64,000 nucleotides of DNA from contig CAVBBF010000001.1 in the NCBI GenBank assembly GCA_963593735.1, positions 9,569 through 73,568 of the forward strand, written 5' to 3'. The notes under the pieces are model-generated. The model made no database searches. It saw nothing but the letters and a program-made list of their open reading frames with translations, and was not told where the DNA came from. This DNA comes from Phascolarctobacterium succinatutens (GTDB taxonomy: Bacteria > Bacillota > Clostridia > Christensenellales > CAG-917). The position numbers and the translations under genes are program-made. Positions 27,495-64,000 of this stretch are shown in pieces (the stretch's first letter is position 1; each line of letters opens with the position of its first letter).

Positions 27495-27506
27495 TCGTTT
27501 TCTCCC

Positions 27507-27541: not shown

Positions 27542-27881
27542 CACAAAAATATAACAAGTGCATATCCGCTTGATTTTGCCACAAACCTTATCCAAAGAAC
27601 AATCGGATAACGCGAATAATGCACCTGTTACCATAAGGTAAGGCACCCGATTGTTCTCTATTCAGTTTGTGGCGACAATAGAATATCACCAATCGGGCAA
27701 ATAGTCAATATATCCAAAATCTCAAACCATTACCGAAAACAAAAAGAATTCGCTTTATAAACAGTTTTACGTTTAGAAAGCACATTTATCTTGATTTCTG
27801 CATAACAAGCGGTTAAAAACTTCGATATTTAGATGAAGAACAAGGAAAAGCCCCTTGTTCGGCAACCCTAATGTGTAAGTT

Positions 27882-28008
27882 GTAAAAACTCGCCATTGAG
27901 ATGAAGAACAAGAAAGAGCCTCACAATCAGGCAGGAGCGTACATTGACGTACGTGACTGTTTGATTGAGAGGCTCTGCCGCCGTTATTCGCTCAATGGCG
28001 AGTTTTAC
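27882..28008 (+). repeat. HP repeat, copy 4
   Basis: S1 GTAAAAACTCGCCATTGAG/CTCAATGGCGAGTTTTAC, S2 AGAGCCTC/GAGGCTCT plus CAATCA/TGATTG, apex CAG GA GCGTAC attgac GTACGT GA CTG (symmetric GA/GA loop). The 3' arm covers the stop codon of the 43 aa ORF. A 5'-half copy lies at 27823-27881. Confidence 0.9.
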
Positions 28009-28136
28009 TTGCAGTTTTTGGTTTCTCTGCTCTTTTCACACCCACAATCTTTGGATTTCGTTGTTTTGCTCGTTTTCGGTTCGTCGCAATGGCATGCGCC
28101 GCTGCGTTTGGTTTGTTTGGTTTCGGATTTTGCCAT
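28005..28136 (-). CDS. Small Cys-rich hypothetical protein (43 aa)
   Basis: Not in the ORF track. AAGGAG RBS lies 7 nt upstream of ATG 28136. Translates MAKSETKQTKRSGACHCDEPKTSKTTKSKDCGCEKSRETKNCK. The stop codon lies inside the outer stem of hairpin repeat copy 4. Confidence 0.45.
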   Translation of the reverse strand: MAKSETKQTKRSGACHCDEPKTSKTTKSKDCGCEKSRETKNCK

Positions 28137-31177: not shown

Positions 31178-31217
31178 TAATGAATAATTAATAATTGGGG
31201 GCGGGACACCCGCACCC
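31162..31217 (+). repeat. A/T box plus GC hairpin, copy 2
   Basis: ATTAATTAATAATTAATAATGAATAATTAATAATT is followed by GGGGCGGG aca CCCGCACCC. The box encodes the last codons and stop of the U32 peptidase gene. Confidence 0.9.
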
Positions 31218-31389
31218 GAAACGAAAACTTGTTCGAAGGCTACTTATTAACGGAATGTACTACTTCGAAGACGAGATAAAATCCTCCGTCCGCGATTATA
31301 TCGCGGACTTTTTTAACGCTCACTCGTTCGAAGCGTTCTTATAAACAGTATCTGCCCATTCGAAGACGGAACACGAGCCGCAAGGCGGC

Positions 31390-31625
31390 ATTGCTCAAAC
31401 GGCGTTGCGGCAATGTCAATCGCCCACGCCGTCATTCAGAGCGTAGCGTGGGAATCCCCTAAACAGAAATGAAAACTTTTGGGGCGATTGACAAAAACCG
31501 AACTTGTTCTCGCAATCACTAACCGCGCAAGCCCTCTTTGCTCTCCCGAATAAAACGGACAAGAACTCAAACCGCAATTCCGTGCGAGTGCTTGCTTGGT
31601 GAGGGCGTGCTACGCACGCAAGCGG
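31390..31625 (-). repeat. M3 module, copy 2 (reverse orientation, inserted inside an LE)
   Basis: Reverse complement of the same module. It interrupts an LE right after GAGCCGCAAGGCGGC, and the LE sequence restarts at about 31629. Confidence 0.8.
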
Positions 31626-31680
31626 TTAAACGAACACTTATTCGAAGCGTTCTTATTAACGGAATGTGCCTGTTCGAAGA

Positions 31681-31949
31681 CGTAACTCGAGCCGCAGGGC
31701 GGCGAGCCTATGAGCGCCGAGCTGGACGATTTGTACGAGAATGCGTGGCATTCCGTTGCGAAGCCGCCACGCAGGCGAAGTGGCATAATAAGTGAAATGC
31801 CCCTATCTATGCGAGTGCCGTCTGTCTCCCCCGCGAACGACGACTACTTGTGTAGAGAAATGCCCCTAACTGAGTGGTGGGAGAAATACCCGAGAGGGAA
31901 AGAGGGGGCGCATCTTTTTAGAGTACACGCCGCTCGCTCTTGTAGAGCA
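31681..31949 (+). repeat. Long-element (LE) core, copy 1
   Basis: ..GAGCCGCAGGGCGGCGAGCCTATGAGCGCCGAGCTGGACGA..GTGGCATAATAAGTGAAATGCCCCTATCTATGCGAGTGCCG..CTTGTAGAG. Same subfamily as the 54792 copy in its 5' half. Confidence 0.85.
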
Positions 31950-32018
31950 AGAATAAAAAGACCTCGATAAATCGATGCATAACGCGAAAGCACCCCTTGA
32001 ATGACAACCCTAATTATT

Positions 32019-32144
32019 AAAACCGCGATATTGAGATGAAGAGCAAGGAAACGCCCTTTTGCGAACCCGCCTAGCGTACTAAATCGTACGTGACGGGTGA
32101 ACAAAAGGGCGTTGACACAGTTATTCGCTCAATAGCGCGGTTTT
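32019..32144 (+). repeat. HP repeat, copy 5
   Basis: S1 AAAACCGCGATATTGAG/CTCAATAGCGCGGTTTT, S2 ACGCCCTTTTG/CAAAAGGGCGT, apex ACCCG CCTA GCGTAC taaatc GTACGT GA CGGGT. Its end overlaps the phosphoesterase stop codon. A 5'-half variant copy lies at 31965-32016. Confidence 0.9.
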
Positions 32145-33621
32145 AATGGTTGGCGGCGTAATCGTTAGCCCCGGTAAAATCCGCATAATAATTCTTCGCA
32201 ACGCAATCGAAAGTGCTGTCCGATTTGAGAGAGATGACGGTTGTGCCGCGCTGGGATTTTTCCTTGTAAATGCCGACGTAGGCGAGATAGTCGATGGACA
32301 TACCGTAGGTGAGACGGATGGATCGAGACGCACCGGTCGGCGTGTAGTTCACTGAGAAGTTGTTGTAGTGGTCGTGTCCGCAGAATATGCCTTGCATTCC
32401 GTGCGTAAGACCCGTTTCAAAGAGCATGTCGGTGCTGCTTCCGCAGAATACGCCGTAGGTGCGAACGCCGTTTTTCTTCTTGTCGGACTCGCCCATTGTG
32501 CCGTAGAGGAATTCGGTTGTGCCGTTATCGGACGTGAGAATCGTTCCGCGAGTCAATTCGTCTTCGGATTTGCCCGACTCGATGACGTTTGCCCACGCAA
32601 GACGATATTCTTCAAGCGGAATATGGAAGAACACAAGGTTGTTGACTTCCTTGCCTTTGTTTGCGGCTTTGAGTTTGTCCATTTCGGTTGCGTACCAGTC
32701 GATTTGGCATTGATGAATATTGTCGTACTTCCACGCCATTCCGAAATAGTCGCCGTCGGTGTAACTGTGGCTGTCGAGCGTAACGAGCGCTTGGTTGATG
32801 GGATTTTCGGAGTCGCTCGGATTCTTTACGACGATGACATCGTTGCCGAAGCCTCTCGAAGTTTTGCTTATCTCGTCCTTCTCGTCGCAGAAACCTGCTC
32901 TGAAAAGACAATATTTGAAACCTGCGTTTGCATAGTAGTCGCAGATTTTGTCGCGGCCGTACAGGCTGTACATCTCGGTGTCGTGGTTGCCGAACGCAAA
33001 CGTCCAGTACACGCCGAGATTTTCCATCATATTCGCAAAGATTTTGGTTGCGTTAAGGTTGTTGAACGTACCTGCTTGGAAGGGAACGGGATACGCAATA
33101 TCGCCCGTTACGACAACGAGGTCGGGTTGAGATTGACGAATCATCGTTGCAACCGCACTCATAGCCCAGTTGTCTTTCGTGCCCGAAAACGCGCCGCCGC
33201 CGATATGTACGTCGGTGAATTGCAACACTTTGAAATCCCTGTCCTCTTCTTTTTCAAACGTCCAGTGTCCGAGTTCGTTGTCGAAAGTCGGAACAAGTTG
33301 CGTATGCTCGGTGTATTCCACCTTTTCAAAACTCGAAGCAAGCGAAAGGTGCGCATTTGTATTGACGGTCGAGGCAATGGCGCAACCGCTGAAAAAGATG
33401 ACGATTGCAAGCACCACGCACCCCGTGATAATCAAGGCTTTTGCGGTTTTTCTTTTCTTTTGTTCGGGTGTGAGTTGTTTTTTCTCTTTTTTGCCCTTCT
33501 TTGCCTTTTTGCCGTCGAAGTCGTTGAGTATACCCTCGTTTTCGACGTTTTCTTCAAGACCGTTTACGCCTTGTTGCGATTCCTCTTGCGGAATATCCGC
33601 ATTTTTGATTTCGTCGCTCAT
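32143..33621 (-). CDS. Membrane-anchored metallophosphoesterase
   Basis: Calcineurin-like blocks QFTDVHIG, VVTGDIAYP, FGNHD, FFHIP, CGHDH. N-terminal TM follows a Lys-rich segment. Confidence 0.8.
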   Translation of the reverse strand: MSDEIKNADIPQEESQQGVNGLEENVENEGILNDFDGKKAKKGKKEKKQLTPEQKKRKTAKALIITGCVVLAIVIFFSGCAIASTVNTNAHLSLASSFEKVEYTEHTQLVPTFDNELGHWTFEKEEDRDFKVLQFTDVHIGGGAFSGTKDNWAMSAVATMIRQSQPDLVVVTGDIAYPVPFQAGTFNNLNATKIFANMMENLGVYWTFAFGNHDTEMYSLYGRDKICDYYANAGFKYCLFRAGFCDEKDEISKTSRGFGNDVIVVKNPSDSENPINQALVTLDSHSYTDGDYFGMAWKYDNIHQCQIDWYATEMDKLKAANKGKEVNNLVFFHIPLEEYRLAWANVIESGKSEDELTRGTILTSDNGTTEFLYGTMGESDKKKNGVRTYGVFCGSSTDMLFETGLTHGMQGIFCGHDHYNNFSVNYTPTGASRSIRLTYGMSIDYLAYVGIYKEKSQRGTTVISLKSDSTFDCVAKNYYADFTGANDYAANH

Positions 33622-36846: not shown

Positions 36847-36878
36847 AATTAATAATTAATAATGAATAATTAATAATT
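36847..36878 (+). repeat. A/T box, copy 3 (no GC hairpin)
   Basis: AATTAATAATTAATAATGAATAATTAATAATT is followed by GCGCCGAATGCAAAAC rather than the hairpin. Confidence 0.85.
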
Positions 36879-36916
36879 GCGCCGAATGCAAAACACAGAA
36901 AAACAATTAAATAAAA

Positions 36917-37150
36917 CTTCCCCCTTCCTCACGTGTTTCCCCTACCGCCGTTCCCCCTCTGCATAAATTTGAGGGAACCCACGACGTCCGCTCCGCGTGG
37001 GGCAACACTCGGCACTCGCATAGATAGGGACATTTCTTTACTTGTGCCACTGCGCTTTGTGCGCCAGCTTCGCACCCAAACGGCGCAGTCGCTTGTACTA
37101 TCCGTCAAGCTCGGCGCTCCCTTTTCTCGCCGCCTTGCGGCTCGTGTTCC
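36917..37150 (-). repeat. LE core, copy 2 (reverse orientation)
   Basis: The reverse complement reads GGAACACGAGCCGCAAGGCGGCGAG..GAGCGCCGAGCTTGACGGATAGTACAAGCGACTGCGCC..GCGCAGTGGCAC..CCCTATCTATGCGAGTGCCG.. . Its distal part matches the 61050 copy. Confidence 0.8.
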
Positions 37151-37189
37151 GTCTGTGAATTAGCACATTCCGTTACAAAATACTAATAT

Positions 37190-37315
37190 AAAACCGCGAT
37201 ATTTGGATGAAGAATGCGAAAGGCACGGCTTGAATCAAAACCCAGTGTACATAGGCGTACACGATTTTGAGACAAGCCGTGCCTGACAAAATTATTCGCC
37301 AAATAGCGCGGTTTT
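37190..37315 (+). repeat. HP repeat, copy 6
   Basis: S1 AAAACCGCGATATTTGG/CCAAATAGCGCGGTTTT, S2 AGGCACGGCTTG/CAAGCCGTGCCT (12 bp perfect), apex CAAAA CCCA GTGTAC ataggc GTACAC GA TTTTG. Its end overlaps the SDR stop codon. Confidence 0.9.
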
Positions 37316-38036
37316 ACAGTCCGGCGGTGATGGACAAGATAGAGCCTACACAATACCCGCTCTCCGCCAAATAAAGTATCGCTTTGGCGATTTCGGTGGG
37401 GGTTGCGAGTCTGCCGAGAGGTATGCTGTCGCGGCAGAGTTCCTCTTTTTCGAGAGAGGTGTAGACGGACATCATATCGGTGTCGACTGCGCCGGGTGCG
37501 ACGGCGTTGACGAGAACGCCCATTGGAGCAACCTCTTTGGCGAGGGCTTTGGTGAAGCCGATGATGGCGGCTTTTGAGGCAGAATAGGCGACTTCCATAC
37601 TTGCTCCCTTCTCGCCCCAGACGGACGACAGATTGACGATCGAGCCTTGTCTGCGAAAAAGCATATCGGGGAGAACGGCTTTTGTGACGTTGAACGTGCC
37701 GTTGACGTTGATGTCGAATATGCGCTTGAAGTCGTCAAGCGACGTATCTATCAAAAGTCCGCTCTTTGCGATACCTGCGTTGTTGACGAGAATATCGATT
37801 TTGCCAAAACGTTTTTTTACGGTTTCGACGGCGTTTGCGACGCTGTCGGGATTTGTAACGTCGCACTCGATTGCGAGCACGCCGCCAAAACGAGAATCAA
37901 GCGCATTCTGCAAAGAAAGCGCTTTCTCCTTTGAGGAATTGTAGGTGAAAGCGACGTTGTAATTTCCCGCCGCCAAGCGTACGACCGCTTCGCCTATTCC
38001 CCGACTTCCACCCGTAATAAAAATGGTTTTGGTCAT
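37314..38036 (-). CDS. SDR family oxidoreductase (3-oxoacyl-ACP reductase FabG-like)
   Basis: TGGSRGIG cofactor motif, NNAG, catalytic YSASKAA. 240 aa. Confidence 0.85.
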   Translation of the reverse strand: MTKTIFITGGSRGIGEAVVRLAAGNYNVAFTYNSSKEKALSLQNALDSRFGGVLAIECDVTNPDSVANAVETVKKRFGKIDILVNNAGIAKSGLLIDTSLDDFKRIFDINVNGTFNVTKAVLPDMLFRRQGSIVNLSSVWGEKGASMEVAYSASKAAIIGFTKALAKEVAPMGVLVNAVAPGAVDTDMMSVYTSLEKEELCRDSIPLGRLATPTEIAKAILYLAESGYCVGSILSITAGL

Positions 38037-42469: not shown

Positions 42470-43078
42470 TTTTCTTCCGTACCTGCGGCATCGCTACCTT
42501 TCGCCACGCTTGATTCCTACGGTCACTTCGTTCCCTCTGAATGACATCGTGGGCGATTGACTTTGCCGCAACGCCGTTTGAATTCTCCTCTTGCGTGCGT
42601 AGCATGCACCCACCAAGCAGATAATTTGGCGAAACTGCGGTTTGAGTTCTTGCCCCTCTTTTTTTTGAGAGCAAAGAGGGCTTGCGCGGTTAGCGATTGC
42701 GAGAACAAGTGCGGTTTTTGACAATCGCCCCAAAAGTTCTCGTTTCTGTTTAGGGGATTCCCACGCTTGCGCTCTGAATGACGATGTGGGCGATTGACAT
42801 CACCGCAACGCCGTTTGGGTTCTCCGCTTGCGTGCAAAGCACGCTTTACCAAGCAAGCACTCGCGCGGAATTGCGGATGGATTCTTTGTCCGTCTTATTC
42901 GGGAGAGCAAAGAGGGCTTGCGCGGTTAGTAGCGCAATAAATCGAGCAAGGCTCTCGGCGAGACGCACACTTGCGTGTTGCCGTTGCCTTAGCGACGATT
43001 TTTGCGCAATCTCACTTGCGCACAGCGCAAATTTCACTGTCCGTAAGGACAATTTCACGCACGCTTGCGTGCATTTCA
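42470..43078 (+). repeat. M3 modules, tandem/mosaic block (about 2.5 units, period ~238 nt)
   Basis: CTCTGAATGAC..GTGGGCGATTGAC..GCCGCAACGCCGTTTG..CTTGCGTGC..AGCA.GC..ACCAAGCA recurs at 42533 and 42771. GAGAGCAAAGAGGGCTTGCGCGGTTAG recurs at 42668 and 42903. Confidence 0.8.
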
Positions 43079-43094
43079 CCGCATCGCAGATGCG

Positions 43095-47130: not shown

Positions 47131-47289
47131 CGGATATTTACTTTTCGCCTATTCAAGGTGTACTTATAAAACGGAATGTGCCTATTCGCAGACGAGATGA
47201 AAACCGCCGTCCGCTCTCCTTGCAAAGCGGACTTCTAACGAACACTCATTCGAAGCGTACTTATACACGGAATGTGCTTATTCGTAGAT

Positions 47290-47554
47290 GGAACACGAGC
47301 CGCAGCGGCGGCGAGCCTATGAGCGCCGAACTTGACGAACAGTACAAGCGACTACGCCGTCCGTTGGCCACTGCCTGGCGCACAAAGCGCAGTGGCATAA
47401 TGAGAGAAATGCCCCCTATCTATGTGAGTGCCGACTTCCCCTCTTGCGAACGATGCGTGTTTTTGTAGAGAAATGACGTTAGTTTGAGCAATAGGGGAAA
47501 GCCCGAAGGGAAGGGGTGATGTGTTATTTTAAGAGTACACGCCGTGCACTCTTT
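47290..47554 (+). repeat. LE core, copy 3
   Basis: GGAACACGAGCCGCAGCGGCGGCGAGCCTATGAGCGCCGAACTTGACGAACAGTACAAGCGACTACGCC..GCCACTGCCTGGCGCACAAAGCGCAGTGGCATAATGAGAGAAATGCC..CAATAGGGGAAAGCCCGAAGGGAAGGGGTGATGTG. Confidence 0.85.
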
Positions 47555-47658
47555 TATTAACTAAACACTTTTATTGTGCCAAACAGATGAAGAACAAGGA
47601 AACACCCTTTTGCAAATCCGCCCAGCGTACTTATGCGTACGCTTTTTTATTACCAATA

Positions 47659-47787
47659 CTTTTATGGCATAAGTGAGATGAATGACGCGAAAAAACCCTG
47701 ATTTTGACAACCCTAATTTACTAATCGTAAATGAGTTGGCAAAATCAGGGCGTTGACAAAGTCAGTCGCTCACTTATGCCATAAAAG
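47659..47787 (+). repeat. HP repeat, copy 7 (orphan, not next to a stop codon)
   Basis: S1 is 19 bp perfect, CTTTTATGGCATAAGTGAG/CTCACTTATGCCATAAAAG. GAATGAC:GTCAGTC replaces GAAGAAC:GTTATTC. S2 CCCTGATTTT/AAAATCAGGG. The apex is as in copy 1. A truncated copy lies at 47577-47641. Confidence 0.9.
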
Positions 47788-48210
47788 CGCAAACGACCTC
47801 GGGTGAACACCCAAAGCCGCTTGCTATGATAAGGGGGAAAATTATGAGCTGTTTGATTTGTAATCCGTTTGTCTCTTGATTACATTGACATATTAGCACC
47901 GAAAAAATAGTTCGTCAAGGGGTTTTTGTAAATTTTTTTTATTTTTTTTGATTTTTTTACAAAATTTCTAACAAAAGTGCAAAATAAAATTCATTGCGAA
48001 TGCAAGATTTGTAGATTTTTTTGCAAAACATGCACCAAAAAAGCGCAAAAATAAGCCGTGCCGATTGACATTAGAATGCCGATTTTAGTAAAATCGGCAT
48101 TCTAAACGGGCGTTTTGTTTTTGACACGGCAATTACTTTAAAAATCATTAATTTTTCGTGATTCTAACACTGTTAAACACAAAATAAAAGGTTTTTTCGA
48201 ATTTTTGCCG

Positions 48211-54585: not shown

Positions 54586-54641
54586 AAATTAATAATGAAT
54601 AATTAATAATTAATAATTGCGGGTGGGCTTTGCCCACACCC
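54586..54641 (+). repeat. A/T box plus GC hairpin, copy 4
   Basis: AAATTAATAATGAATAATTAATAATTAATAATT (internally permuted) is followed by GCGGGTGGGC ttt GCCCACACCC. Lies ~20 nt upstream of the -35 of the rpmH promoter on the opposite strand. Confidence 0.9.
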
Positions 54642-54791
54642 AAACGAACACTTATTCGTAGCCTACTTATTAACGGTATGTGCTAATTCGCAGACGAGAT
54701 GAAAACCGCCGTCCGCGAACTTGCAGAGTGGACTTTCTAACGAACACTTATTCGAAGTTTACTTATAAACGGTATGTGTTTATTCGAAGAC

Positions 54792-55054
54792 GGAACACGA
54801 GCCGCAAGGCGGCGAGCCTATGAGCGCCGAGCTGGACGATTTGTACGAGAATGCGTGGCATTCCGTTGCGAAGCCGCCACGCAGGCGAAGTGGCATAATG
54901 AGTGAAATGCGCCTATCTATGCGAGTGCCGATTTCCCCTCTTGCGAACGATGTGCAATCTTGTAGAGAATTGACGTTTGTTTGAGCAATAGGGGAAAGCC
55001 CGAAGGGAAGGGGTGATGTGTGATTTAAAGTACACGCCGTACACTCTTGTAGAG
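54792..55054 (+). repeat. LE core, copy 4
   Basis: GGAACACGAGCCGCAAGGCGGCGAGCCTATGAGCGCCGAGCTGGACGATTTGTACGAG..GTGGCATAATGAGTGAAATGCGCCTATCTATGCGAGTGCCG..CAATAGGGGAAAGCCCGAAGGGAAGGGGTGATGTG..CTTGTAGAG. Confidence 0.85.
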
Positions 55055-55217
55055 AAAGAAAAACGCCCTTCTTTTTTCGAGAGGGGTGTTAACACAGTTA
55101 TTCGCTCAATAGCGACATTACATATGTGAGTGCGCCAAACAGATGTATAACAAGAAAGACACGACTTGAATCAAAACCCAGTGTACATAGTCGTACACGA
55201 TTACACAAAAACAATGT

Positions 55218-55336
55218 AAGCCGATATTGAGATGAAGAACAAGGAAACGCCCTCTTGCGAACCCGCCCAGCGTACTATTCGTACGTGACGGGTGAACAAA
55301 AGGGCGTTGACGATGTTATTCGCTCAATAGCGGCTT
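55218..55336 (+). repeat. HP repeat, copy 8
   Basis: S1 AAGCCGATATTGAG/CTCAATAGCGGCTT, S2 ACGCCCTCTTG/CAAAAGGGCGT (one C:A), apex ACCCG CCCA GCGTAC tattc GTACGT GA CGGGT. Its end overlaps the argS stop codon. Partial copies lie at 55051-55115 and 55128-55202. Confidence 0.9.
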
Positions 55337-57017
55337 ACATTTCTTCGGGAGCGGAAATGCCGAGCAACCCCAACCCACACTTTATCACGTTGCCCACCGC
55401 TTTGGTGAGAGCAAGACGTGCGTTGCGAGTGGGTGCGTCATCGACGAGTATGCGATGATCGATGTAGAAACGATTGAACTTTTCGGCAAGATCGACGATG
55501 TGACGAGTGACGTAGCAGGGCTCGCGCAGTTTGGCGGCTTGGCGCACGGAATCGCCGAAAGCAATGACGGATTTTATGACGTCGTAACCCTCGTCGGAAG
55601 TTATTGCGGACAAGTCGACGTTTGCATAATCGATGTCGCCGCCCTTGCGAAGCGCGCTTGCGCAACGAGCATAGGTATATTGAACGTAAGGTGCGGTTTC
55701 GCCGTCGAAATTAAGCACCTTGTCGTATGAAAACACGATGTCTTTTATACGGTTGTTCCAAAGGGACGAGAACACCACCGCGCCTACGCCGACGCTCTCT
55801 GCGATTTCGTCTTTGTTTGGTGTGTTCGGATTCTTTTCCTCGATGATTTTTCTTGCTTTTTCAACCGCCTTGTCCAGCACTTCTTGAAGCCAAATTACGC
55901 GCCCCGAACGCGTTGACATAGAGCCGTCTTCCATAGAAACCATGCCGTATGCGACGTGCTCCATATCGTCTGCACCTGCAAAATCCATAAGTTTAAGCAC
56001 CTGAAACAGTTGCTTAAAGTGCAGATTCTGCTGATATGCGACAACGTAAAGGCATTTGTAGAAGTCGTACGTTTTCTTGCGATAATACGCCGCGGCGATG
56101 TCGCGCGTTGCATACAAAGTCGCGCCGTCCGCCTTGACCAAAAGGCACGGCGGCATATCGTATTCGTCGAGGTTTACAACCTGTGCGCCGTCGCTTTCGA
56201 CAAGCAAGTTTTTCTCTCTCAATATGTCGAGGCACGCCTCCATTTTGTCGTTGTAGAAACTCTCGCCGGCATAACTGTCGAACTTGATTTTCAAGCGATC
56301 GTAAATCTTTCCGACGGCGGTCATCGTAACCTTTTTGAATACGTCGAAATACTTTGTCGCTTCCTCGTCGCCGTCCTCGATACGCTTGAACCAAGCGCGA
56401 GCCTCGTCGTCCATTTCGGGATGTTCTTCCGCCTCTTTGTGATAGCGCACGTAAAGTTTGTTGAGGAAGTATTCGTCGTTTTCCGCCACTTCCTCGAGAG
56501 AAGACCATTTGCGAGTTGCGACGATGAGTTTTCCGAATTGCGTACCCCAGTCGCCGAGATGGTTTATGCCGACGACATTGTAGCCGAGATGTTCAAAAAT
56601 GCGATAAAGTGCGCCGCCGATGACAGTCGTACCGAGATGTCCGATGTGAAAAGGCTTTGCGATGTTGACCGAACTATAATCGATGCAAATGGTTTTGCCT
56701 GCGCCCTCGTCGCTCGCGCCGACGTTTTCGTCCGTCGCGCTTTCGAGAGCCTTTTTCGCAAGCGTATTTCTGTCAAAGAAAATGTTGAGATAGCCGCCCA
56801 CAACCTCGACTTTTTCCACGAAATCGAGTGCCTGAACATAAGGCAAAAGTTTGTTTGCGATAACGGGCGGCGCAAGGCGCATTGTGCGTGCAAATTTGAA
56901 GCACGGCAAACAAATATCGCCCATTTTCGCTTCTTTCGGCGTTTCGAGAGCCGATTCGACGTCTTGCACCGAAAGCCCTTCGACGGCAAGCGCATTTGTT
57001 AATTCTTTTTCAAACAT
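55335..57017 (-). CDS. argS: Arginine--tRNA ligase
   Basis: 560 aa. SVNIAKPFHIGHLGTT (HIGH region). C-terminal anticodon-binding DALR-like region ending ISAPEEM. Confidence 0.95.
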   Translation of the reverse strand: MFEKELTNALAVEGLSVQDVESALETPKEAKMGDICLPCFKFARTMRLAPPVIANKLLPYVQALDFVEKVEVVGGYLNIFFDRNTLAKKALESATDENVGASDEGAGKTICIDYSSVNIAKPFHIGHLGTTVIGGALYRIFEHLGYNVVGINHLGDWGTQFGKLIVATRKWSSLEEVAENDEYFLNKLYVRYHKEAEEHPEMDDEARAWFKRIEDGDEEATKYFDVFKKVTMTAVGKIYDRLKIKFDSYAGESFYNDKMEACLDILREKNLLVESDGAQVVNLDEYDMPPCLLVKADGATLYATRDIAAAYYRKKTYDFYKCLYVVAYQQNLHFKQLFQVLKLMDFAGADDMEHVAYGMVSMEDGSMSTRSGRVIWLQEVLDKAVEKARKIIEEKNPNTPNKDEIAESVGVGAVVFSSLWNNRIKDIVFSYDKVLNFDGETAPYVQYTYARCASALRKGGDIDYANVDLSAITSDEGYDVIKSVIAFGDSVRQAAKLREPCYVTRHIVDLAEKFNRFYIDHRILVDDAPTRNARLALTKAVGNVIKCGLGLLGISAPEEM

Positions 57018-57035
57018 AGTTACTCCTATTTTATT

Positions 57036-57352
57036 CCTCTACAAAAGTTTGACGGCGTGAACTTTAAAATCACACATCACCCCTTCCCTTCGGGCTTTCC
57101 CCTATTGCTCAAACGAACGTCATTTCTCTGTCAGATTACACATCGTTCGCAAGAGATGGTAGGACGCGATTGACTTCGTAACAATCGCTATTCCGTCACT
57201 GCGTTCCTTACGGCACTCACATAGATAGGGGCATTTCTCTCATTATGCCACTGCGCTTTGTGCGCCAGGCAGTGGCCAACGGACGGCGCAGTCGCTTGTA
57301 CTATTCGTCAAGTTCGGCGCTCATATGCGAGCCGCCGTTGCGGCTCGTGTTC
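57036..57352 (-). repeat. LE core, copy 5 (reverse orientation, carries nested module H)
   Basis: Reverse complement of the copy 3 subfamily. Module H (57162-57211) is inserted between ..CGCAAGAGATGGTA and GGCACTCACATAGATAGG. The TTGTAGAG end lies 19 nt from the argS start codon. Confidence 0.85.
57162..57211 (-). repeat. Module H, copy nested in LE core copy 5
   Basis: GGACGCGATTGAC ttcgtaa CAATCGCTATTCCGTCACTGCGTTCCTTAC is the reverse complement of the 10178-10230 module, with a different hairpin loop. Confidence 0.8.
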
Positions 57353-57420
57353 CGTCTACGAATTAGCACATACCGTTAATAAGTACGCTTCGAATGAGTG
57401 TCCGTTTTAAGCACACTTTT

Positions 57421-57545
57421 TTAAGTGCGATATTGAGATGCAGAGCAAGGAAGATACTTTCGCACGGCAACCCTAATTTACTATGCGTAAATGAGTTGAC
57501 GGGCGAAGGTGTCTGACGAAGTTATTCGCCGAATAGTGCGCTTAA
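57421..57545 (+). repeat. HP repeat, copy 9 (tandem with copy 10)
   Basis: S1 TTAAGTGCGATATTGAG/CCGAATAGTGCGCTTAA (imperfect), S2 AGATACTTTCGC/GCGAAGGTGTCT (two G:T), apex CAAC CCTA ATTTAC tatgc GTAAAT GA GTTG. Confidence 0.85.
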
Positions 57546-57548
57546 TTT

Positions 57549-57668
57549 GAGTGCGATATTTGGATGAAGAACAAGGAAGATGCGATTTTTGAACAACGAG
57601 CGTACTTAGGCGTACGTGACTTGTGAAAAAATCGTATCTGACGAAGTTATTCGCCAAATAGCACGCTC
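57549..57668 (+). repeat. HP repeat, copy 10
   Basis: S1 GTGCGATATTTGG/CCAAATAGCAC, S2 AGATGCGATTTTT/AAAAATCGTATCT (one G:T), apex ACAA C GA GCGTAC ttaggc GTACGT GA C TTGT. Ends at the ychF stop codon (57667-57669). Confidence 0.85.
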
Positions 57669-58749
57669 AAACGTTGATGCGGAACAAAACCACATCATTA
57701 TCCTGCATCACATAATCCTTCCCCTCGCTGCGTACTTTGCCGCGCTCTTTGGCGACGTTGAAGGAGCCGCATTCGAGAAGGGTTTGATAATCGACAATTT
57801 CGGCACGAATGAAACCGCGCTCGAAGTCGCTGTGAATTTTGCCGGCGGCTTGGGGGGCTTTGGTGCCTTTGACGATGGTCCAAGCACGCGTTTCTTTTTC
57901 ACCGGCGGTGAGATAACTGATGAGCCCCAAAAGTTTGTAAGACGCTTTGACGAGGCGGTCGAGTCCGCTCTCTTTAAGCCCGTAATCTTCCATAAACATT
58001 GCGCGGTCGTCGTCGGAAAGTTCGCTCAAATCTTCTTCGAGTTTGGCGCAAAGCACGATTGCTTCGGTGTTTTCCTCTTTGGCGATACTCTCGACTTCCT
58101 CGGTATACGCATTACCGTTTATGCCCGCTTCGTCGGTGTTTGCAACGTAGATGACGGGTTTGGACGTGAGCAAAAATTGCTCGTCAACAAAGCGTTTGAA
58201 GTCCTCGTCCATATCGAGATTGCGAAGGGGCTTGCCGCTTTCGAGCCACTTTTGCATAACAACGAGGCGGTCGATGTCCTCTTGATATTTTTTGTCCGCT
58301 TTCACCTTGACTTGCGCCGAAGCCATACGGCGTTCGAGGGTTTCCATATCGGCAAAAATAAGTTCGAAATTGATTGTTTCGATGTCTCTTTGCGGATTGA
58401 CCGAACCGTCGACGTGCGTTATGTTCGCGTCGTCGAAACAGCGAACAACGTGTACGATTGCGTCCACTTCCCTTATATGCGAAAGAAATTTGTTGCCGAG
58501 TCCTTCGCCTTTGCTTGCGCCCTTGACAAGACCCGCGATATCCACGAATTCAAGCGAAGTCGGGGTGATTTTTTTGCTGTCGTAAAGAGCGGCAAGTTTT
58601 TCGAGTCTTTCGTCGGGAACGGCAACAACACCTACGTTAGGCTCGATCGTGCAGAACGGATAATTCGCCGCTTGCGCGCCCGCCTTTGTGATTGCGTTGA
58701 AAAGCGTACTCTTGCCCACGTTTGGCAAACCTACGACACCGAGTTTCAT
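57667..58749 (-). CDS. ychF: Redox-regulated ribosome-binding ATPase YchF
   Basis: ATG at 58749 (MKLGVVGLPNVGKSTLFNA) with a GAGGT RBS. The upstream part of the ORF-track ORF is non-coding read-through. 360 aa. Confidence 0.95.
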   Translation of the reverse strand: MKLGVVGLPNVGKSTLFNAITKAGAQAANYPFCTIEPNVGVVAVPDERLEKLAALYDSKKITPTSLEFVDIAGLVKGASKGEGLGNKFLSHIREVDAIVHVVRCFDDANITHVDGSVNPQRDIETINFELIFADMETLERRMASAQVKVKADKKYQEDIDRLVVMQKWLESGKPLRNLDMDEDFKRFVDEQFLLTSKPVIYVANTDEAGINGNAYTEEVESIAKEENTEAIVLCAKLEEDLSELSDDDRAMFMEDYGLKESGLDRLVKASYKLLGLISYLTAGEKETRAWTIVKGTKAPQAAGKIHSDFERGFIRAEIVDYQTLLECGSFNVAKERGKVRSEGKDYVMQDNDVVLFRINV

Positions 58750-59691: not shown

Positions 59692-59700
59692 ATTCGATTG

Positions 59701-59790: not shown

Positions 59791-60945
59791 TTATTTTGCC
59801 AGTTCGTCGGCGAGATTTTTAATTTGCGCTATGTTTTCTTCGCTCATAGAGGAGAGAATTTTGACTTCGGTTTGCGCAAACGTGAGGGTTTTGCATCCTT
59901 CGAGCATACCCTTCATAACCTTTGTCGCAAGAGGTGCCCACGAGCCGTTTTCAATGAACGCAACCGTGCGATTTTGGAAATTGCGCTCGGTGAGATGAAG
60001 GATAAATTCTCTCATAACGGGGAACACGTCGCCGTTGTAAGTGGGGGCGGCAAGCACGAGTTTGCCGTAGCGGAACGCGTCTTCGACATTCTCTGCCCAG
60101 TCGCTGCGAGCGAGGTCGGAAACAGTGGCTTTTACGCCCTTTTCTTCGAGTTGCTCTGCAAGCAATTTCGCCGCTTTTTCGGTGTGCCCGTAGACGGAAG
60201 CGTATGCAACGAACACGCCTTCGCTTTCAACGCCGTACGTTGACCAAACGATGTAGAGATTGAGATAATATCCGAGATTGTCTGTAAGCACCGGTCCGTG
60301 AAGCGGACAAATGATTTTTATGTCAAGTCCCGCAATCTTTTTGAAGAGGCTTTGCACTTGCGCGCCGTATTTGCCGACTATGCCGAAATAATATCTTCTC
60401 GCCTCGCACGCCCAGTCCTCATCCTCGACATCCAACGCGCCGAACTTGCCGAACGCGTCTGCGGAAAAGAAAACTTTGTCCGTCTTGTCGTATGTCATTA
60501 TAACTTCGGGCCAATGCACCATAGGCGCGGTGACGAATTGAAACTCGTGTCTGCCCGTCACAAGCGTCGAGCCGTCGCCGACGACTATCCTTCTTTCCTC
60601 AAATGACGTGCCGAAATAGTTTTGCATCATTGCAAACGCCTTTTGAGAGGAAACAATCGTCGCGCTCGGATATGCCGTCATAAACTCGACGATGTTTGCC
60701 GAATGGTCGGGCTCCATGTGTTGTACGACGAGATAATCGGGCTTTTTGCCGTCAAGCACGCTTTGAACGTTTGCAAGCCACTCTTTGCCGAAATGCGCGT
60801 CAACGCTGTCGAAAACGGTGATTTTGTCGTCGAAAACGACGTAGGAATTGTACGCCATGCCGTTGGGAACGACGTATTGCCCCTCGAACAAATCAATACC
60901 ATTGTCGTTTACGCCGACGTATTTAATATCGTTTGTGATAATCAT
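59791..60945 (-). CDS. Flavodiiron protein (FprA-type, MBL fold plus flavodoxin domain)
   Basis: ATG at 60945 (MIITNDIKYVG) with an AGGAG RBS. Di-iron motif HMEPDHS. C-terminal flavodoxin-like domain. Confidence 0.85.
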   Translation of the reverse strand: MIITNDIKYVGVNDNGIDLFEGQYVVPNGMAYNSYVVFDDKITVFDSVDAHFGKEWLANVQSVLDGKKPDYLVVQHMEPDHSANIVEFMTAYPSATIVSSQKAFAMMQNYFGTSFEERRIVVGDGSTLVTGRHEFQFVTAPMVHWPEVIMTYDKTDKVFFSADAFGKFGALDVEDEDWACEARRYYFGIVGKYGAQVQSLFKKIAGLDIKIICPLHGPVLTDNLGYYLNLYIVWSTYGVESEGVFVAYASVYGHTEKAAKLLAEQLEEKGVKATVSDLARSDWAENVEDAFRYGKLVLAAPTYNGDVFPVMREFILHLTERNFQNRTVAFIENGSWAPLATKVMKGMLEGCKTLTFAQTEVKILSSMSEENIAQIKNLADELAK

Positions 60946-61049
60946 ATTTGCTCCTATATAAAAATTTATTTTCTGTTTGATGAGATTATTGTAACACAGA
61001 AACGAAGGAACGAACAATAGATTAACAAACAATCGCAAACTTAATTAAA

Positions 61050-61340
61050 GCTTCCCCCTTCCTCACGTGTTTCCCCCACCGCCGTTCCCCCTCTGCATAC
61101 TTTGAGGGAACCCACGGTGTCCGCTTCGCGTGGGGCAACACTGACGCGATTGACTTCGTAGCAATCGCTAGTTCGTTGCGCGCAACGAACGGCAGACGGG
61201 CTGTTGGCAATACAAATCGGCTGAAAGCCGTGCCACCGTCCTTTGTGTGCCAGCTACGCACCCAAACGGCACAGTCGGACGGTACTAATCGTCGAGCTTC
61301 GACGCTCGCTTTTCTCGCCGCCGTTGCGGCTCGCGTTCCG
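61050..61340 (-). repeat. LE core, copy 6 (reverse orientation, diverged)
   Basis: Shares CTTCCCCCTTCCTCACGTGTTTCCCC.ACCGCCGTTCCCCCTCTGCATA.TTTGAGGGAACCCACG with copy 2, and ..CGCCGCCGTTGCGGCTCG.GTTCC with all copies. Contains a module H fragment (61143-61170) and a perfect 20 nt palindrome (61171-61190). Confidence 0.75.
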
Positions 61341-61439
61341 TCTTCGAATATACACATATCGTTTACAAAACAGACTGTGTGAGATAAAGAACACGAAAAC
61401 GCCCCTTTGCGATTCGCTCGGCGTTTGACAAGCAGTGCT

Positions 61440-61542
61440 AAATCGATGCATAACGCGAAAGCACCCCTTGCATGACAACCCTAATTTACTAAATCGTAAA
61501 TGAGTTGACAGGCGGGTGTCTCTGCCGCAGTTATTCGCGATT
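61440..61542 (+). repeat. HP repeat, copy 11 (chimeric: variant 5' arm, standard 3' arm)
   Basis: The 5' arm AAATCGATGCATAACGCGAAAGCACCCC matches copy 2. The apex is CAAC CCTA ATTTAC taaatc GTAAAT GA GTTG. The 3' arm is ..CTGCCGCAGTTATTCGCGATT. S2 is only partly complementary. A truncated copy lies at 61366-61437. Confidence 0.75.
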
Positions 61543-61556
61543 CCTTATTGACTTCA

Positions 61557-61684
61557 TCAAACAGTCTGTGTGAGATAAAGAACACGAAAACGCCCCTTTG
61601 ATAGCAATCCTAACGTACTTAGGCGTACGTGAATTGATAGCAAAGGAGCGTTGACGCAGTTGTTTGCTCACACAGGCTGTTTGA
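61557..61684 (+). repeat. HP repeat, copy 12
   Basis: S1 TCAAACAGTCTGTGTGAG/CTCACACAGGCTGTTTGA (one T:G), S2 ACGCCCCTTTG/CAAAGGAGCGT (one C:A), apex CAAT CCTA ACGTAC ttaggc GTACGT GA ATTG. The 3' arm is the stop plus last 5 codons of the 61668-62453 lipoprotein gene. Confidence 0.9.
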
Positions 61685-62453
61685 TGGCAAGGTGGATGTT
61701 CATAAACTCAATCGACAAAGCCCCCATCGTATCGTTTTCGGTCAATGTGAAGACACCAAAGGGCGCAGTTTGAGGATTGTCCTTGACTTTGTAGCCAAGA
61801 TAAATGGCTCTAAAGTGCGTGTCGTCGGAAGCGGTCAAGTCGCGGAGGGCGTATTGCGTGTCGAGAGTGAGACGAAGGACGGTGTCCTGAGGTATGGCAT
61901 CGAGAAGATCGGCAGGAAGAGCCATGTTTTCACCGACATATTTAAGTGCCGCTTTGACTTTTTCGTTTTGAAGGTCGAGACCGTCGATGTTGAAGCCGAG
62001 ACTGTGTTTGATAAGTCCAAGCGCACCCTGCAAATCGCTGTCTTTGAGTTTTTGCGTGAAGCCGGGGAACATAGGTTCGACATAATAATCGACGCTTGTT
62101 TTTATGTCAAAACCCGAAAGCGCGGTCGAGAGGTCAACTCCAAAATAATTGAGCAGTCCTGTTATGTTTTTGAACAATCCCGCTTTGGTTTGGATTTGCA
62201 TATGCATGGTTCCGTCGGTTTTGAACTCGAAATAAGTGTTGTCGGTGTCGATTGCCGCTTTGACGATAAGTTCGAGGAGTTTTTTGTTCATCCCCATCAT
62301 ATTGAGGTTGTCGTAATCAACGTCGAAGCGAGTGTTTTGAGCAAAAACCGAATCGTCGGTTTTTTCGTTGCAGGCGCAGAGTGCGAACAGACAAGAGGAA
62401 AGCAAAACGAGCGCGATTGCTATCGTGAAAATTCTAATAACGGATTTTTTCAT
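61668..62453 (-). CDS. Hypothetical lipoprotein (261 aa)
   Basis: Lipobox FALCACNE. No family recognised. The last 5 codons plus the stop lie inside the outer stem of hairpin repeat copy 12. Confidence 0.7.
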   Translation of the reverse strand: MKKSVIRIFTIAIALVLLSSCLFALCACNEKTDDSVFAQNTRFDVDYDNLNMMGMNKKLLELIVKAAIDTDNTYFEFKTDGTMHMQIQTKAGLFKNITGLLNYFGVDLSTALSGFDIKTSVDYYVEPMFPGFTQKLKDSDLQGALGLIKHSLGFNIDGLDLQNEKVKAALKYVGENMALPADLLDAIPQDTVLRLTLDTQYALRDLTASDDTHFRAIYLGYKVKDNPQTAPFGVFTLTENDTMGALSIEFMNIHLAIKQPV

Positions 62454-63869: not shown

Positions 63870-63931
63870 AAAATTAAATTAATAATTAATAATGAATAAT
63901 TAATAATTGAGGGAGTGCTCTGCCCTCACCC
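63870..63931 (+). repeat. A/T box plus GC hairpin, copy 5
   Basis: AAAATTAAATTAATAATTAATAATGAATAATTAATAATT is followed by TGAGGG agtgctctg CCCTCA CCC, then CGAAACGAAAACTTATTCGAAG as in copy 2. The element runs off the window end. Confidence 0.9.
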
Positions 63932-64000
63932 GAAACGAAAACTTATTCGAAGACTACTCTTACACGAAATGTGCAACTTCGAAGACGAGATGAAACCGCC

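Follow-up and report, generated by a model that had tools for sequence, protein, structure and literature searches.

A mosaic of small intergenic repeat families with a long hairpin anchored at stop codons

Composition of the repeat islands

The window (the whole stretch of 64,000 nucleotides analysed here) carries an island of repeated modules at 54586-55345, between the rpmH promoter (54566->54538, minus strand) and the argS stop codon. All of its modules are given on the + strand. At the left end, an A/T box of TAATAAT-type repeats (54586..54618) lies ~20 nt upstream of the -35 element of the rpmH promoter and adjoins a GC hairpin (GCGGGTGGGCtttGCCCACACCC, 54619..54641). In the argS direction (minus strand), the pair consists of a 10-bp GC stem followed by the 33-nt A/T box (58% U), and judged by its sequence it looks like a terminator. 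Rightward follow a 55-nt TTCGAAG unit (copy 1, U1, 54642..54696), a small spacer hairpin (GTCCGC...GTGGAC, 54697..54738) separating it from a second such unit, and the non-coding LE element of ~325 nt, made up of that second unit and a core (54739..55063). The island continues with a degenerate short hairpin remnant bearing the right-hand motif GTTATTCGCTCAATAGCG (55048..55123) and with the left half of a decayed hairpin copy (55140..55202), which keeps the left motif and apical stem-loop and has no right arm, and it ends with a full hairpin element (HP, 55209..55345) at the argS stop. The basal helix of this HP takes in the last codon and the stop codon of argS (55335-55337, minus strand). 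Predicted folding energies are -66 to -70 kcal/mol for the argS HP and -41 to -53 kcal/mol for the ychF HP (z of -7 to -10). The focal island gave no Rfam match at E up to 10.

An earlier note on this DNA estimated that such islands fill ~6 kb, or ~10%, of the window; self-blastn measured 6,111 repeated bases (9.5%). All ten places that the note listed were recovered (5190-5335, 10084-10230, 14264-15019, 31165-32147, 36829-37316, 47161-47787, 54580-55341, 57029-57665, 61041-61600, and 63862-64000), together with two islands absent from its list (27823-28006 and 42531-42930). The proposed layout was borne out as well: by covariance model, a full hairpin is the right-most repeat in 9/9 islands ending inside the window (the island from 63870, cut by the window end, was left out of this count), the five islands with an A/T box all carry it at the left end (14272, 31165, 36847, 54586, and 63876), and LE occurs both in + orientation (31629, 47237, and 54739) and in minus orientation (37009-37174, 57029-57406, and 61282-61368). 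The LE core had been put at ~260 nt; the LE unit is ~325 nt long including one TTCGAAG unit, and a longer form of ~477 nt runs from the A/T box through the LE end.

The remaining islands combine the same modules, on the + strand unless stated. An HP stands at the hypA stop (5202..5339; hypA 5330..5674, minus strand), with a hairpin remnant nearby at about 5110-5150. At the stop of an ABC/FtsX gene, an HP of the GATGCATAAC subfamily (10091..10257) holds the 51-nt module H in its TGAC motif (10180-10230). The HP of the M28 peptidase gene (14906..15042) has a right arm formed by the last six codons of the gene. A half HP (27823-27872) and a full HP (27878-28013) make up 27823..28013, the full copy being placed at the stop of a 47-aa Cys-rich ORF (28148->28008, minus strand). 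The island at 31165..32150, between convergent genes, begins with the A/T box and GC hairpin, a unit, and LE positions 1-75, and proceeds through M3 (31390-31625), a full LE (31629-31956), a half HP (31965-32015), and a full HP (32013-32150). M3 had been read as an insertion within one LE; instead, it is flanked by a truncated LE (positions 1-75) and a complete one. The island at 36847..37321 comprises an A/T box (36847-36881), P (36900-37009), a minus-orientation LE (37009-37182), and an HP (37184-37321), and the minus-strand island in the asnS/asnA spacer (42531..43081) comprises M3 in ~1.7 copies (42531-42930) and a Gut-1 RNA (43004-43081).

The island after glmM (47147..47791) contains LE (47147-47557), a half HP (47585-47641), and an HP (47655-47791). 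The AT-rich spacer at 47.8-48.3 kb was considered as a replication origin and ruled out, since it has no DnaA-box cluster. In the ychF/argS spacer (57029..57676), a minus-orientation LE (57029-57415), with 13-16 nt between its 3' end and the argS ribosome-binding site, precedes two tandem HPs (57427-57539 and 57541-57676). Module H is inserted in this LE (57162-57216) as it is in the hairpin at 10180-10230, and the orthologous LE of relative L001 is uninterrupted, which upholds the nesting of H that the note had described. The island at 61041..61689 consists of P (61041-61142), H (61143-61176), a minus-orientation LE fragment (61180-61412), a truncated HP (61368-61430), and two HPs (61433-61550 and 61552-61689), the last with a right arm spanning the last five codons of gene 61668..62453. 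Finally, an A/T box, GC hairpin, and unit (63876..64000) form the start of the island cut by the window end.

A conserved hairpin at stop codons

With tandem pairs counted, the covariance model found 12 HP copies across the window, all on the + strand. The right-most HP of an island adjoins the stop codon of a minus-strand gene, with the exception of 47655-47791, where only a putative 41-aa ORF stops. A pattern describing HP matched exactly five times in the window and never in 100 shuffles. The element is a hairpin of ~130 nt with three conserved motifs (GATGAAGAACAAGGAAA, TGACnnnGTTATTCGC, and CGTAC..GTACGTGA). Compensatory changes on both sides were observed at 30 of its 40 predicted pairs, and 93.6% of alignment cells pair, compared with 71.6% in shuffles (a value of 93.6% was reached in 0/500 shuffles) and 34-42% when partners were slid. 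HP is a genuine conserved hairpin, supported by covariation. A pattern scan of species-representative assemblies located it in at least 32 species-level MAGs whose labels read Christensenella or Clostridiales.

Of 114 HP copies, 81 had a stop codon on the GTTATTCGC side, one had it on the opposite side, and none on both; the modal distance was 12-14 nt. The stop codon is fully paired in 71/91 copies (TAA 67, TGA 22, and TAG 2), and the basal helix often takes in the last one to six codons as well. TTT/AAA is found at the stem base in 56% of HPs and a run of four (TTTT) in 33%, compared with 19-23% in controls. The TGA-type copies are without a U tract, and a canonical intrinsic terminator therefore cannot fully explain HP. 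The variable helices contain 136 G-T and 124 A-C pairs and display no strand bias (p = 0.5). The constraint on HP therefore need not act on RNA, and the absent bias fits arm-to-arm correction at the DNA level. With regard to the acting strand, the sense mRNA is suggested by how strictly HP is oriented to the gene, whereas the invariant U.G, G.A, and tandem G.A/A.G features of HP make folding of the gene-antisense strand (+ in the window) more likely. Three conserved modules and a stem of ~55 bp exceed what a simple terminator needs, suggesting a putative binding factor.

Two other readings of the HP sequence were rejected. A small HP-encoded peptide (MKNKE...) was discarded because changes in the motifs are compensated by the opposite arm and codons are not conserved. 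The middle module has the tandem G.A pairs of a k-turn, but the strand expected to be unbulged has 4-7 extra bases, which makes it non-canonical. Rfam scans of the whole window, run both at gathering scores and with E as high as 1, returned only Gut-1 at 43 kb and noise, with no match for HP, LE, M3, H, P, or the A/T box. HP was not found in viral, plasmid, and phage collections (including IMG/VR), no tRNA or tmRNA origin of the repeats was found, and a literature search on repeats in Christensenellales/Christensenellaceae, or on Gut-1, yielded no papers. Gut-1 was the only module with a match in Rfam or in the plasmid and phage collections.

Two HPs and an LE precede argS, with no evident promoter, both in the window and in L001. 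Either transcription passes the HPs or a promoter is supplied by LE.

Other modules and turnover among relatives

The A/T box and GC hairpin occupy the island end distal to HP and are co-oriented with HP in 12/12 cases within 1 kb. The ordered, modular islands that the note described are real; however, their order stems from two modules tied to gene direction and is no property of an "island unit", because HP and the A/T box with GC hairpin both take their direction from the upstream gene. LE, M3, H, P, and Gut-1 occupy the interior in either orientation. LE is non-coding, since its copies vary by 1-nt indels between conserved blocks, which ruled out a protein gene. As a structured RNA it was also set aside (the consensus fold of 21 copies is weak, at -21 and -18 kcal/mol on the two strands), as it was as a gene-specific leader such as a T-box: it precedes argS in two genomes and tadA in another, and elsewhere it faces a convergent gene. 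A viral origin of LE was dismissed, the lone 19-mer match in IMG/VR being a chance hit within a high-GC coding region. Gut-1 (RF01706) scores 55.3 bits in the window (43004-43081), 58.6 in L117 (2910-2988), and 52.3 in L072 (1488-1568), all above the Rfam gathering score of 50, and in L117 and L072 it immediately precedes a co-oriented LE.

When relatives were compared at the same loci, gene order around the islands was collinear and module content differed, empty sites included. LE is absent at the orthologous site in L030. The 42.5-kb island is absent in L077 and L028, where the asnS-asnA spacer measures ~110 nt and ~54 nt, respectively. L007 has an A/T box and GC hairpin at the place of P, H, and LE in the window. 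An ordinary terminator replaces HP in some orthologues: the gene end at 24383 has a classical terminator in the window and an HP in L047, and L117 carries a terminator at a site where the window, L120, and L039 carry HP. After ychF, L001 holds two HP interiors in swapped order, one of them 100% identical to the window copy of the opposite slot. In 80 non-orthologous HP pairs with interiors at least 90% identical, flank identity drops to background beyond ~15 nt on each side. HP interiors are exchangeable, whereas each locus has outer stems of its own, which mirror the final codons of the gene. Additional decaying HP copies in L059 share one locus-specific arm.

At the M28 peptidase gene, the distal arm of HP follows the coding arm in three lineages, and a relic of the old arm persists in the window (14806..14870). 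This leftover distal arm of an older HP shares 96% identity with L120. It mirrors the codons (QERTK) at the C-terminal end of the L120 M28 peptidase gene, from which we infer that the ancestor of the window formerly had these codons in its own gene. In one gene, four C-terminal codons were rewritten by HP turnover. Insertion of HP into the loop of an earlier terminator was considered for the M28 peptidase locus and rejected, as an HP-less relative has no inverted copy of the coding end; the outgroup search at this locus returned only relatives of at least 85% identity, whose loci were used.

Origin and possible function

The islands are probably pile-ups of at least seven small, non-coding, non-autonomous families (HP, the A/T box with GC hairpin, LE, M3, H, P, and Gut-1), anchored by 3'-end hairpins, reshaped by recombination, and confined to one clade of uncultured gut Clostridia, whose MAGs bear the labels Christensenella or Clostridiales. 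HP and the GC hairpin with its A/T box would both act in mRNA as 3'-end hairpins. HP may serve as a terminator and/or a 3' stabiliser in place of an ordinary intrinsic terminator, and the GC hairpin followed by the U-rich A/T box would mark the far end of the island, just ahead of the next gene. Between these two anchors, the gap would be filled by the other modules and by decaying older HP copies. HP interiors are presumed to be swapped by recombination or conversion at the conserved motifs, with local tandem duplication followed by decay, and nesting of modules, as further routes by which content may change. The arms of the palindrome would correct each other, which would keep the distal arm complementary to the coding end and could also overwrite C-terminal codons.

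The note had argued for repeated mobilisation or recombination rather than simple duplication. Fast turnover among relatives by module replacement, exchange, and nesting agrees with this view, and so do exchanges at the conserved motifs that resemble recombination or conversion; tandem copies also arise locally and then decay, however, and transposition is unsupported, given variable hairpin ends, locus-specific outer stems, and no recurring transposase in ~0.8 Mb of flanks. We regard it as unlikely that HP and the other modules are classical MITEs moved by a transposase encoded elsewhere (for example of the TA-targeting IS630/Tc1 type), with the islands as insertion hot spots. The size and palindromic shape of HP do recall RUP, Correia, and ERIC elements, many copies sit within TA...TA brackets (TA|AAAC..GTTT|TA), H is nested within HP and within LE, and presence varies among relatives. 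Yet the ends of HP are not fixed: the TA flanks are found at TAA-ending genes, at a variable distance from the HP core, and TGA-ending genes show inverted TGA...TCA arms in their place. Outer stems differ between loci even where interiors are at least 90% identical, leaving no shared terminal inverted repeats, and an 81:1 orientation relative to the gene is unexpected for a symmetric element of that kind. When 1,512 ORFs from 115 loci were clustered, ABC ATPases and spurious antisense ORFs were all that emerged, with no recurring or repeat-linked transposase family; a RAYT-type search of these loci and the window for any recurring non-housekeeping ORF family found none, and phage and plasmid collections were without a match.

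It is rather improbable that each island or LE is a non-coding RNA gene, with the A/T box as promoter, the GC hairpin as 5' stabiliser, LE with or without Gut-1 as body, and HP as terminator. The A/T box includes -10-like hexamers but has no -35 or extended -10; the order of A/T box, GC hairpin, unit, and LE is kept in other species, and Gut-1, an Rfam sRNA candidate, lies directly upstream of co-oriented LE in L117 and L072, but LE occurs both ways round relative to HP and the A/T box. On the + strand, which the invariant G.U and G.A of HP also favour, LE folds slightly better than shuffles (single-copy z = -2.3, with a second single-copy z-score of -1.4), but 21 copies give only a weak consensus fold on either strand, and the focal island has no Rfam match at E up to 10. 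The related proposal of one transcript per island, from A/T box to hairpin, went unsupported because LE lies either way round and many hairpins are solitary, with neither LE nor an A/T box (as at 5202 and 27878). We give very little credence to HP being an attC-like site for a tyrosine recombinase acting on folded single-stranded DNA, whose products would be the exchanged interiors and half-sites. HP has a 7-bp inverted core with AAC at the end and GTT at the start (GAAGAAC/GTTATTC), an unpaired spacer whose TGAC seems an insertion hot spot, a variable palindromic centre, conserved mismatched bases, a size (~95-130 nt) within the attC/VCR range, a single orientation at gene 3' ends, and interiors exchanged between slots. 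However, the attC consensus RYYYAAC/GTTRRRY fails in both readings (GTTATTC and GTTCTTC), with only the AAC and GTT triplets fitting; the neighbours are housekeeping genes in conserved order (argS, ychF, hypA, and the M28 peptidase gene) instead of an array of promoterless cassettes, no integrase gene was found in the window or the loci examined, and the exchange concerns the interior of the site rather than the gene. Chimeric repeats from metagenome assembly or binning are effectively refuted. Related sequences come nearly all from MAGs, and short repeats are difficult to assemble, but at least 32 independent assemblies contain the modules, among them the complete 1.65-Mb MAG chromosome CP091723.1 (isolate name "nC33_lr_bin.267"), and the islands are therefore no assembly artefact; the same modules occupy orthologous loci in independent assemblies from different projects, flanking genes are collinear, and arm covariation follows the gene sequence.

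The islands belong to a known kind of bacterial repeat landscape, and the unusual part is the ~130-nt hairpin at the stop codon of the upstream gene. BIME/REP elements, rhizobial RIME, and Neisseria NIME/Correia elements are mosaics of palindromic units, mostly at gene 3' ends or between convergent genes, that make up a large part of intergenic DNA and have roles in mRNA 3' stabilisation or termination; a mosaic of palindromic units and short motifs at gene ends is common to them and to the islands. REP units are 20-40 nt long, with a GTAG head, alternating orientation in BIMEs, and RAYT transposases, whereas HP is ~130 nt long, has motifs of its own and no GTAG-type head, and lies on the same strand in 12/12 window copies. 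NIME units are flanked by 20-bp dRS3 repeats, and Correia elements are bounded by fixed 26-bp terminal inverted repeats with a TA duplication; the islands have neither dRS3 flanks nor fixed 26-bp terminal inverted repeats. Mycobacterial MIRUs are oriented intergenic repeats whose ends overlap flanking stop and start codons. HP shares with them the orientation and the overlap with stop codons, but MIRUs are tandem direct repeats of 40-100 bp within operons, with small ORFs, and HP is a long hairpin. The attC sites and Vibrio cholerae repeats resemble HP: they too are imperfect palindromes of comparable length that occupy gene 3' ends in a fixed orientation, and their AAC...GTT core, unpaired spacer, and variable centre have counterparts in HP. 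HP differs in having no core consensus, cassette array, or integrase, and in adjoining housekeeping genes in conserved synteny. Around half of HPs also look like bidirectional intrinsic terminators, with a GC-rich stem between A and T tracts (AAAAC.GCG...CGC.GTTTT), but the HP stem is ~55 bp long with conserved internal loops, contains the stop codon, and lacks a U tract in 44% of copies.

Among the pneumococcal BOX, RUP, and SPRITE repeats, several small non-coding families cluster intergenically and insert in or beside each other, BOX is modular, and SPRITE, a long duplex followed by a ~48% U tract, is enriched near coding-sequence 3' ends, where it is believed to have been recruited as a terminator (Croucher et al. 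2011, PMC3049150, where BIME, NIME, and Correia elements are also cited). The GC hairpin with A/T box (10-bp stem, then 33 nt of 58% U) is SPRITE-like in form. HP is far longer than these repeats and has three motifs, a locus-specific basal helix containing the stop codon, and a near-absolute orientation; BOX and RUP, for their part, have ends resembling those of IS elements. One minor island module belongs to the Gut-1 RNA motif family (RF01706). What is described here is a new mosaic repeat system of the BIME/NIME/BOX-SPRITE kind, with an unusual hairpin anchored at stop codons.

A bolder reading of HP, which we think has only a slim chance of being right, is that it goes beyond a selfish or terminator repeat and is a new class of gene-end device in about one-fifth of the genes of the clade. 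The basal helix would sequester the stop codon, with the middle module beginning 12-14 nt downstream of the stop. A terminating ribosome covers about that length of mRNA. Translation termination would then melt the basal helix and thereby couple termination to 3'-end formation, to read-through into the next gene, or to a putative factor binding the three motifs. Arm-to-arm conversion would let the palindrome maintain itself, making the interiors exchangeable cassettes and repeatedly rewriting the C-terminal codons of the host gene.

Under the preferred account of recombining repeat families, the system makes up ~10% of the small (~1.6 Mb) genomes of an abundant uncultured gut lineage, and the orphan motif Gut-1 gains a context as one of its modules. 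Gene callers now call spurious ORFs on LE and HP, and covariance and HMM definitions would improve MAG annotation. HP is of interest as a three-motif structure without an Rfam family that replaces ordinary terminators and whose turnover can rewrite the last codons of proteins. If HP is a terminator or a factor-binding 3' element, it would mark the 3' ends of transcription units by a signal defined in sequence and used across the lineage; otherwise, it would be a well-defined example of gene-end evolution driven by a palindrome. A plain terminator in the window (59697-59742) fits the outer stem of the HP covariance model.

Modules of the intergenic islands

Self-comparison of the window by blastn yielded 147 repeat alignments covering 6,111 bases (9.5% of the window). 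Every island listed in an earlier note, which had estimated a repeat content of about 10%, was recovered (at 5.2, 10.1, 14.3–15.0, 31.2–32.1, 36.8–37.3, 47.2–47.8, 54.6–55.3, 57.0–57.7, 61.0–61.6 and 63.9 kb), together with two further islands at 27.8–28.0 and 42.5–42.9 kb. We split the island at 54586–55336 into modules and mapped these back over the whole window. The mapping reproduced the claimed order: an A/T box of TAATAAT-type repeats (54586–54618), a GC hairpin (54619–54641), a 55-nt ‘TTCGAAG’ unit (54642–54696), a small spacer hairpin, a second unit with the core of the repeat LE (54739–55063), two decayed hairpin pieces, and the full hairpin repeat (HP, ~130 nt; 55209–55345).

LE is non-coding, as its copies differ by 1-nt indels. 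The actual unit measures ~325 nt rather than the ~260 nt ascribed to its core, and other species also have a long form of ~477 nt that spans the A/T box through the end of LE. LE occurs in either orientation, as previously described, forms only local hairpins with a weak consensus fold, and has ~58 further matches in the loci fetched from related assemblies (70 counting the window's own copies); the module P is an alternative 3′ half of LE. In the window and in the related locus L001, the LE 3′ end adjoins the argS ribosome-binding site, and in locus L112 that of tadA; it lies 13–27 nt before the start codons (window 57018–57045; L112 6780–6807). A gene-specific leader is ruled out, since LE precedes argS in two of these places and tadA in the third. 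No recognisable promoter was found between the LE 3′ end and the argS or tadA start codons; an outward promoter may lie in LE, or transcription from upstream may continue across the hairpins into both genes.

Two smaller modules, M3 (236 nt) and H (51 nt), have the hairpin motif GTCAATCGC...GCGATTGAC in common (31390–31625, 42531–42930 and 57162–57216), M3 additionally having CGTCATTCAGAGCG(A/T)AGCGTGGGAATCCC, and they may represent one family of small nested insertions. The reported nesting of H holds: it splits an HP within the TGAC motif at 10180–10230, and at 57162–57216 it interrupts an LE that is uninterrupted in L001. M3 at 31390–31625, which had been placed inside an LE, instead has a truncated LE on one side and a full one on the other. 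A further island module is Gut-1 (Rfam RF01706), small hairpins in a row with GUGAAAU/GUGAUAU between them, located on the minus strand at 43004–43081 (next to M3, between asnS and asnA), directly upstream of LE in locus L117 (2910–2988), and between LE pieces in locus L072 (1488–1568). To our knowledge, Gut-1 has so far been known from gut metagenomes only. On LE and hairpin sequences, public gene calls and ORF finders give ‘hypothetical proteins’ of ~60–110 aa that are spurious (window 61022..61357, minus strand, and 47178..47468, plus strand; L117 2656–2988), and the protein catalogues of these MAGs are likely inflated by them.

HP and its position at stop codons

A regular-expression search for HP gave 167 matches in the window and loci, including two coding false positives later taken out, and a covariance model located 12 plus-strand copies in the window and none on the minus strand. 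Alignments describe HP as a single long hairpin in which three sequence-conserved modules are separated by variable helices. The basal module (GCGATATTnA / TnAATAGCGC) contains a conserved A.G mismatch; the middle module (GATGAAGAACAAGGAAA / TGACnnnGTTATTCGC) contains an invariant U.G, a G.A, and tandem G.A/A.G pairs; the apical module reads CCTAaCGTAC-loop-GTACGTGA. Standard pairs fill 93.6% of the pair cells in 50 diverse copies, compared to 71.6% in shuffles and 34–42% with slid partners, and none of 500 shuffles reached the observed pairing. Compensatory changes on both sides were found for 30 of 40 pairs, and the folding energy of single copies is −41 to −70 kcal/mol (z of −7 to −10) on either strand. 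No Rfam match for HP was found.

HP is locked to gene ends. For 115 of 152 copies, the GTTATTCGC side has the end of an opposite-strand ORF no more than 30 nt away, with 12–14 nt the commonest distance; when stricter ORFs and full flanks were used, the gene end lay on the GTTATTCGC side in 81 cases, on the other side in one, and on both in none. The stop codon is base-paired in the basal helix of 71 out of 91 copies irrespective of its type (TAA 67, TGA 22 and TAG 2 among the 91), and the pairing extends into coding sequence by a mean of 1.6 bp, versus 0.3 bp in a shifted control. The full hairpin always occupies the right end of an island, as had been noted, because of this anchoring and because the window genes adjoining HP lie on the minus strand.

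We counted 26 copies of the A/T box with its GC hairpin across the window and loci; all 12 HPs within 1 kb on the GC-hairpin side of this module are co-oriented with it. Read in the direction of the HP-bearing gene, the module combines a GC stem of 10 bp with 33 nt of 58% U downstream of it, a form matching that of the pneumococcal SPRITE, a terminator-like repeat composed of a duplex and a U-rich tract (PMC3049150). It closes the island directly before the next gene; the copy at 54586–54641 lies ~20 nt upstream of the rpmH promoter, a perfect TTGACA-17-TATAAT. This accounts for the A/T box always standing at the left end, as noted. The proposed island order is thus real, but its source is two gene-oriented modules, HP and the A/T box plus GC hairpin.

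One hairpin coincides exactly with the end of an unannotated ORF of 47 aa, rich in Cys and Lys (MAKSETKQTKRSGACHCDEPKTSKTTKSKDCGCEKSRETKNCK; 28008–28148, minus strand), which has a good ribosome-binding site and for which no Pfam match was found. A 480-nt AT-rich spacer with long T runs (47788–48267) extends from a hairpin to the mnmG end. It contains a near-perfect 35-nt palindrome (48071–48105) and a possible 41-aa ORF (47774..47899, minus strand), is 81% conserved in locus L077 over 47790–47977, and gave no DnaA-box cluster.

Termination, hairpin replacement and island turnover

The consensus basal helix of HP, AAAAC.GCG...CGC.GTTTT, looks like a bidirectional intrinsic terminator, and a plain terminator at 59697–59742 matches the outer stem of the HP covariance model. 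Ordinary terminators and HP replace each other in two orthologue comparisons: the window gene ending at 24383 has a classical terminator where its orthologue in locus L047 has an HP at the stop, and the M28 peptidase gene bears HP in the window, L039 and L120 and a classical terminator in L117. An A/T run of at least 3 at the stem base is present in only 56% of HP copies, which makes termination by HP plausible but not general. HP is best regarded as a putative 3′-end hairpin or terminator; anchored as it is at the stop codon, it is a genuine oddity that awaits explanation and can be tested.

In 80 pairs of non-orthologous HPs sharing at least 90% identity in their interiors, flank identity is at background beyond ~15 nt on either side, and the outer stems can differ entirely. 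Downstream of ychF, the two HP interiors of the window recur in L001 with their slots exchanged, and one of them matches its counterpart at 100% identity; the outer arms have not moved. The M28 peptidase gene has different C-termini in three lineages (QERTK, ESRTK and ESRAK), and in each of them its last 5–6 codons are mirrored by the distal, non-coding arm of HP. The last codons change from QERTK* in L120 (2585–2830) to ESRAK* in the window (14806–15042) along with a hairpin replacement, and the window retains at 14806–14870 a relic of the old distal arm, mirroring QERTK and 96% identical to L120. This relic indicates that the replacement was accompanied by the rewriting of four codons, and protein C-termini seem to be rewritten by hairpin turnover. 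Were the structure selected on one RNA strand, an excess of one opposition type would be expected in the variable helices, where G-T and A-C oppositions number 136 and 124 (p = 0.5). Arm-to-arm templated correction of DNA palindromes is a known template-switch mechanism; the balance fits such correction, and we infer that it acts at HP.

Related loci differ extensively in island content. A single site holds an A/T box and GC hairpin in L007, from a 93% relative, versus P, H and LE in the window. L001 is without the whole gene and island of 59.7–61.7 kb. The missing gene is of flavodiiron type (59791..61038, metallo-beta-lactamase and flavodoxin domains), and opposite window 59698–61676 L001 has 291 nt of A/T box, GC hairpin and hairpins (647–938). 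A different HP adjoins the neighbouring gene there (61668 in the window), with a C-terminal change of the same kind as in the peptidase (KQR* in L001, KQPV* in the window). The ychF–argS spacer has no LE in L030, and the 824-nt island at 42.3–43.1 kb compares with spacers of ~110 nt in L077 and ~54 nt in L028. At the 5-kb island, three relatives vary in extra HP copies; these have the arm specific to that locus and are in decay or inverted. The ‘partial hairpins’ standing between LE and a full HP are therefore older HP copies.

Distribution and relation to known repeats

The window genes include rpmH-rnpA-yidC-jag-mnmE-mnmG, argS, ychF, glmM, asnS/asnA, hypA and others. Scanning one genome per species for the hairpin pattern gave at least 115 loci from uncultured gut Clostridia (at least 32 assemblies), whose labels include ‘Christensenella sp. 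UBA...’, ‘Firmicutes bacterium CAG:475’, ‘CAG:238’ and ‘Clostridiales UMGS...’. These assemblies include a complete MAG chromosome of 1.65 Mb, and the coding DNA of the nearest relatives is ~93% identical to the window. It follows from this distribution that the repeats belong to the clade and do not stem from assembly. A literature search gave nothing on repeats in this clade.

The repeat landscape works like that of BIMEs, RIMEs and NIMEs and bears its closest likeness to the pneumococcal BOX/RUP/SPRITE clusters (PMC3049150). The repeats differ from REP/BIME in unit size, head motif and alternating orientation, from MITEs with respect to fixed ends, and from attC sites in core consensus and cassette arrays; Gut-1 is the only module belonging to a described family. 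No recurring transposase or recombinase was found near the repeats, and no copies were found in viral contigs, phages or plasmids. Of the repeated mobilisation or recombination suggested earlier, recombination and turnover are borne out by the relatives' loci, while transposition, with no recurring transposase, is not. We consider probable the overall account of islands whose modules undergo recombination and turnover, whose order is set by the two gene-oriented modules, and in which HP acts as a 3′-end hairpin or terminator.

GC content drops to 37–41% at 24400–28000, from ~49% elsewhere. This stretch encodes a BspA-type leucine-rich-repeat protein of 836 aa (25074..27584, minus strand) and may have been gained, as surface-protein DNA, by horizontal transfer. 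The adjacent, 72% identical paralogues at 8541..9236 and 9215..9889 (minus strand; match 8752–9121 / 9420–9783) are a tandem gene duplication, separate from the repeat islands.
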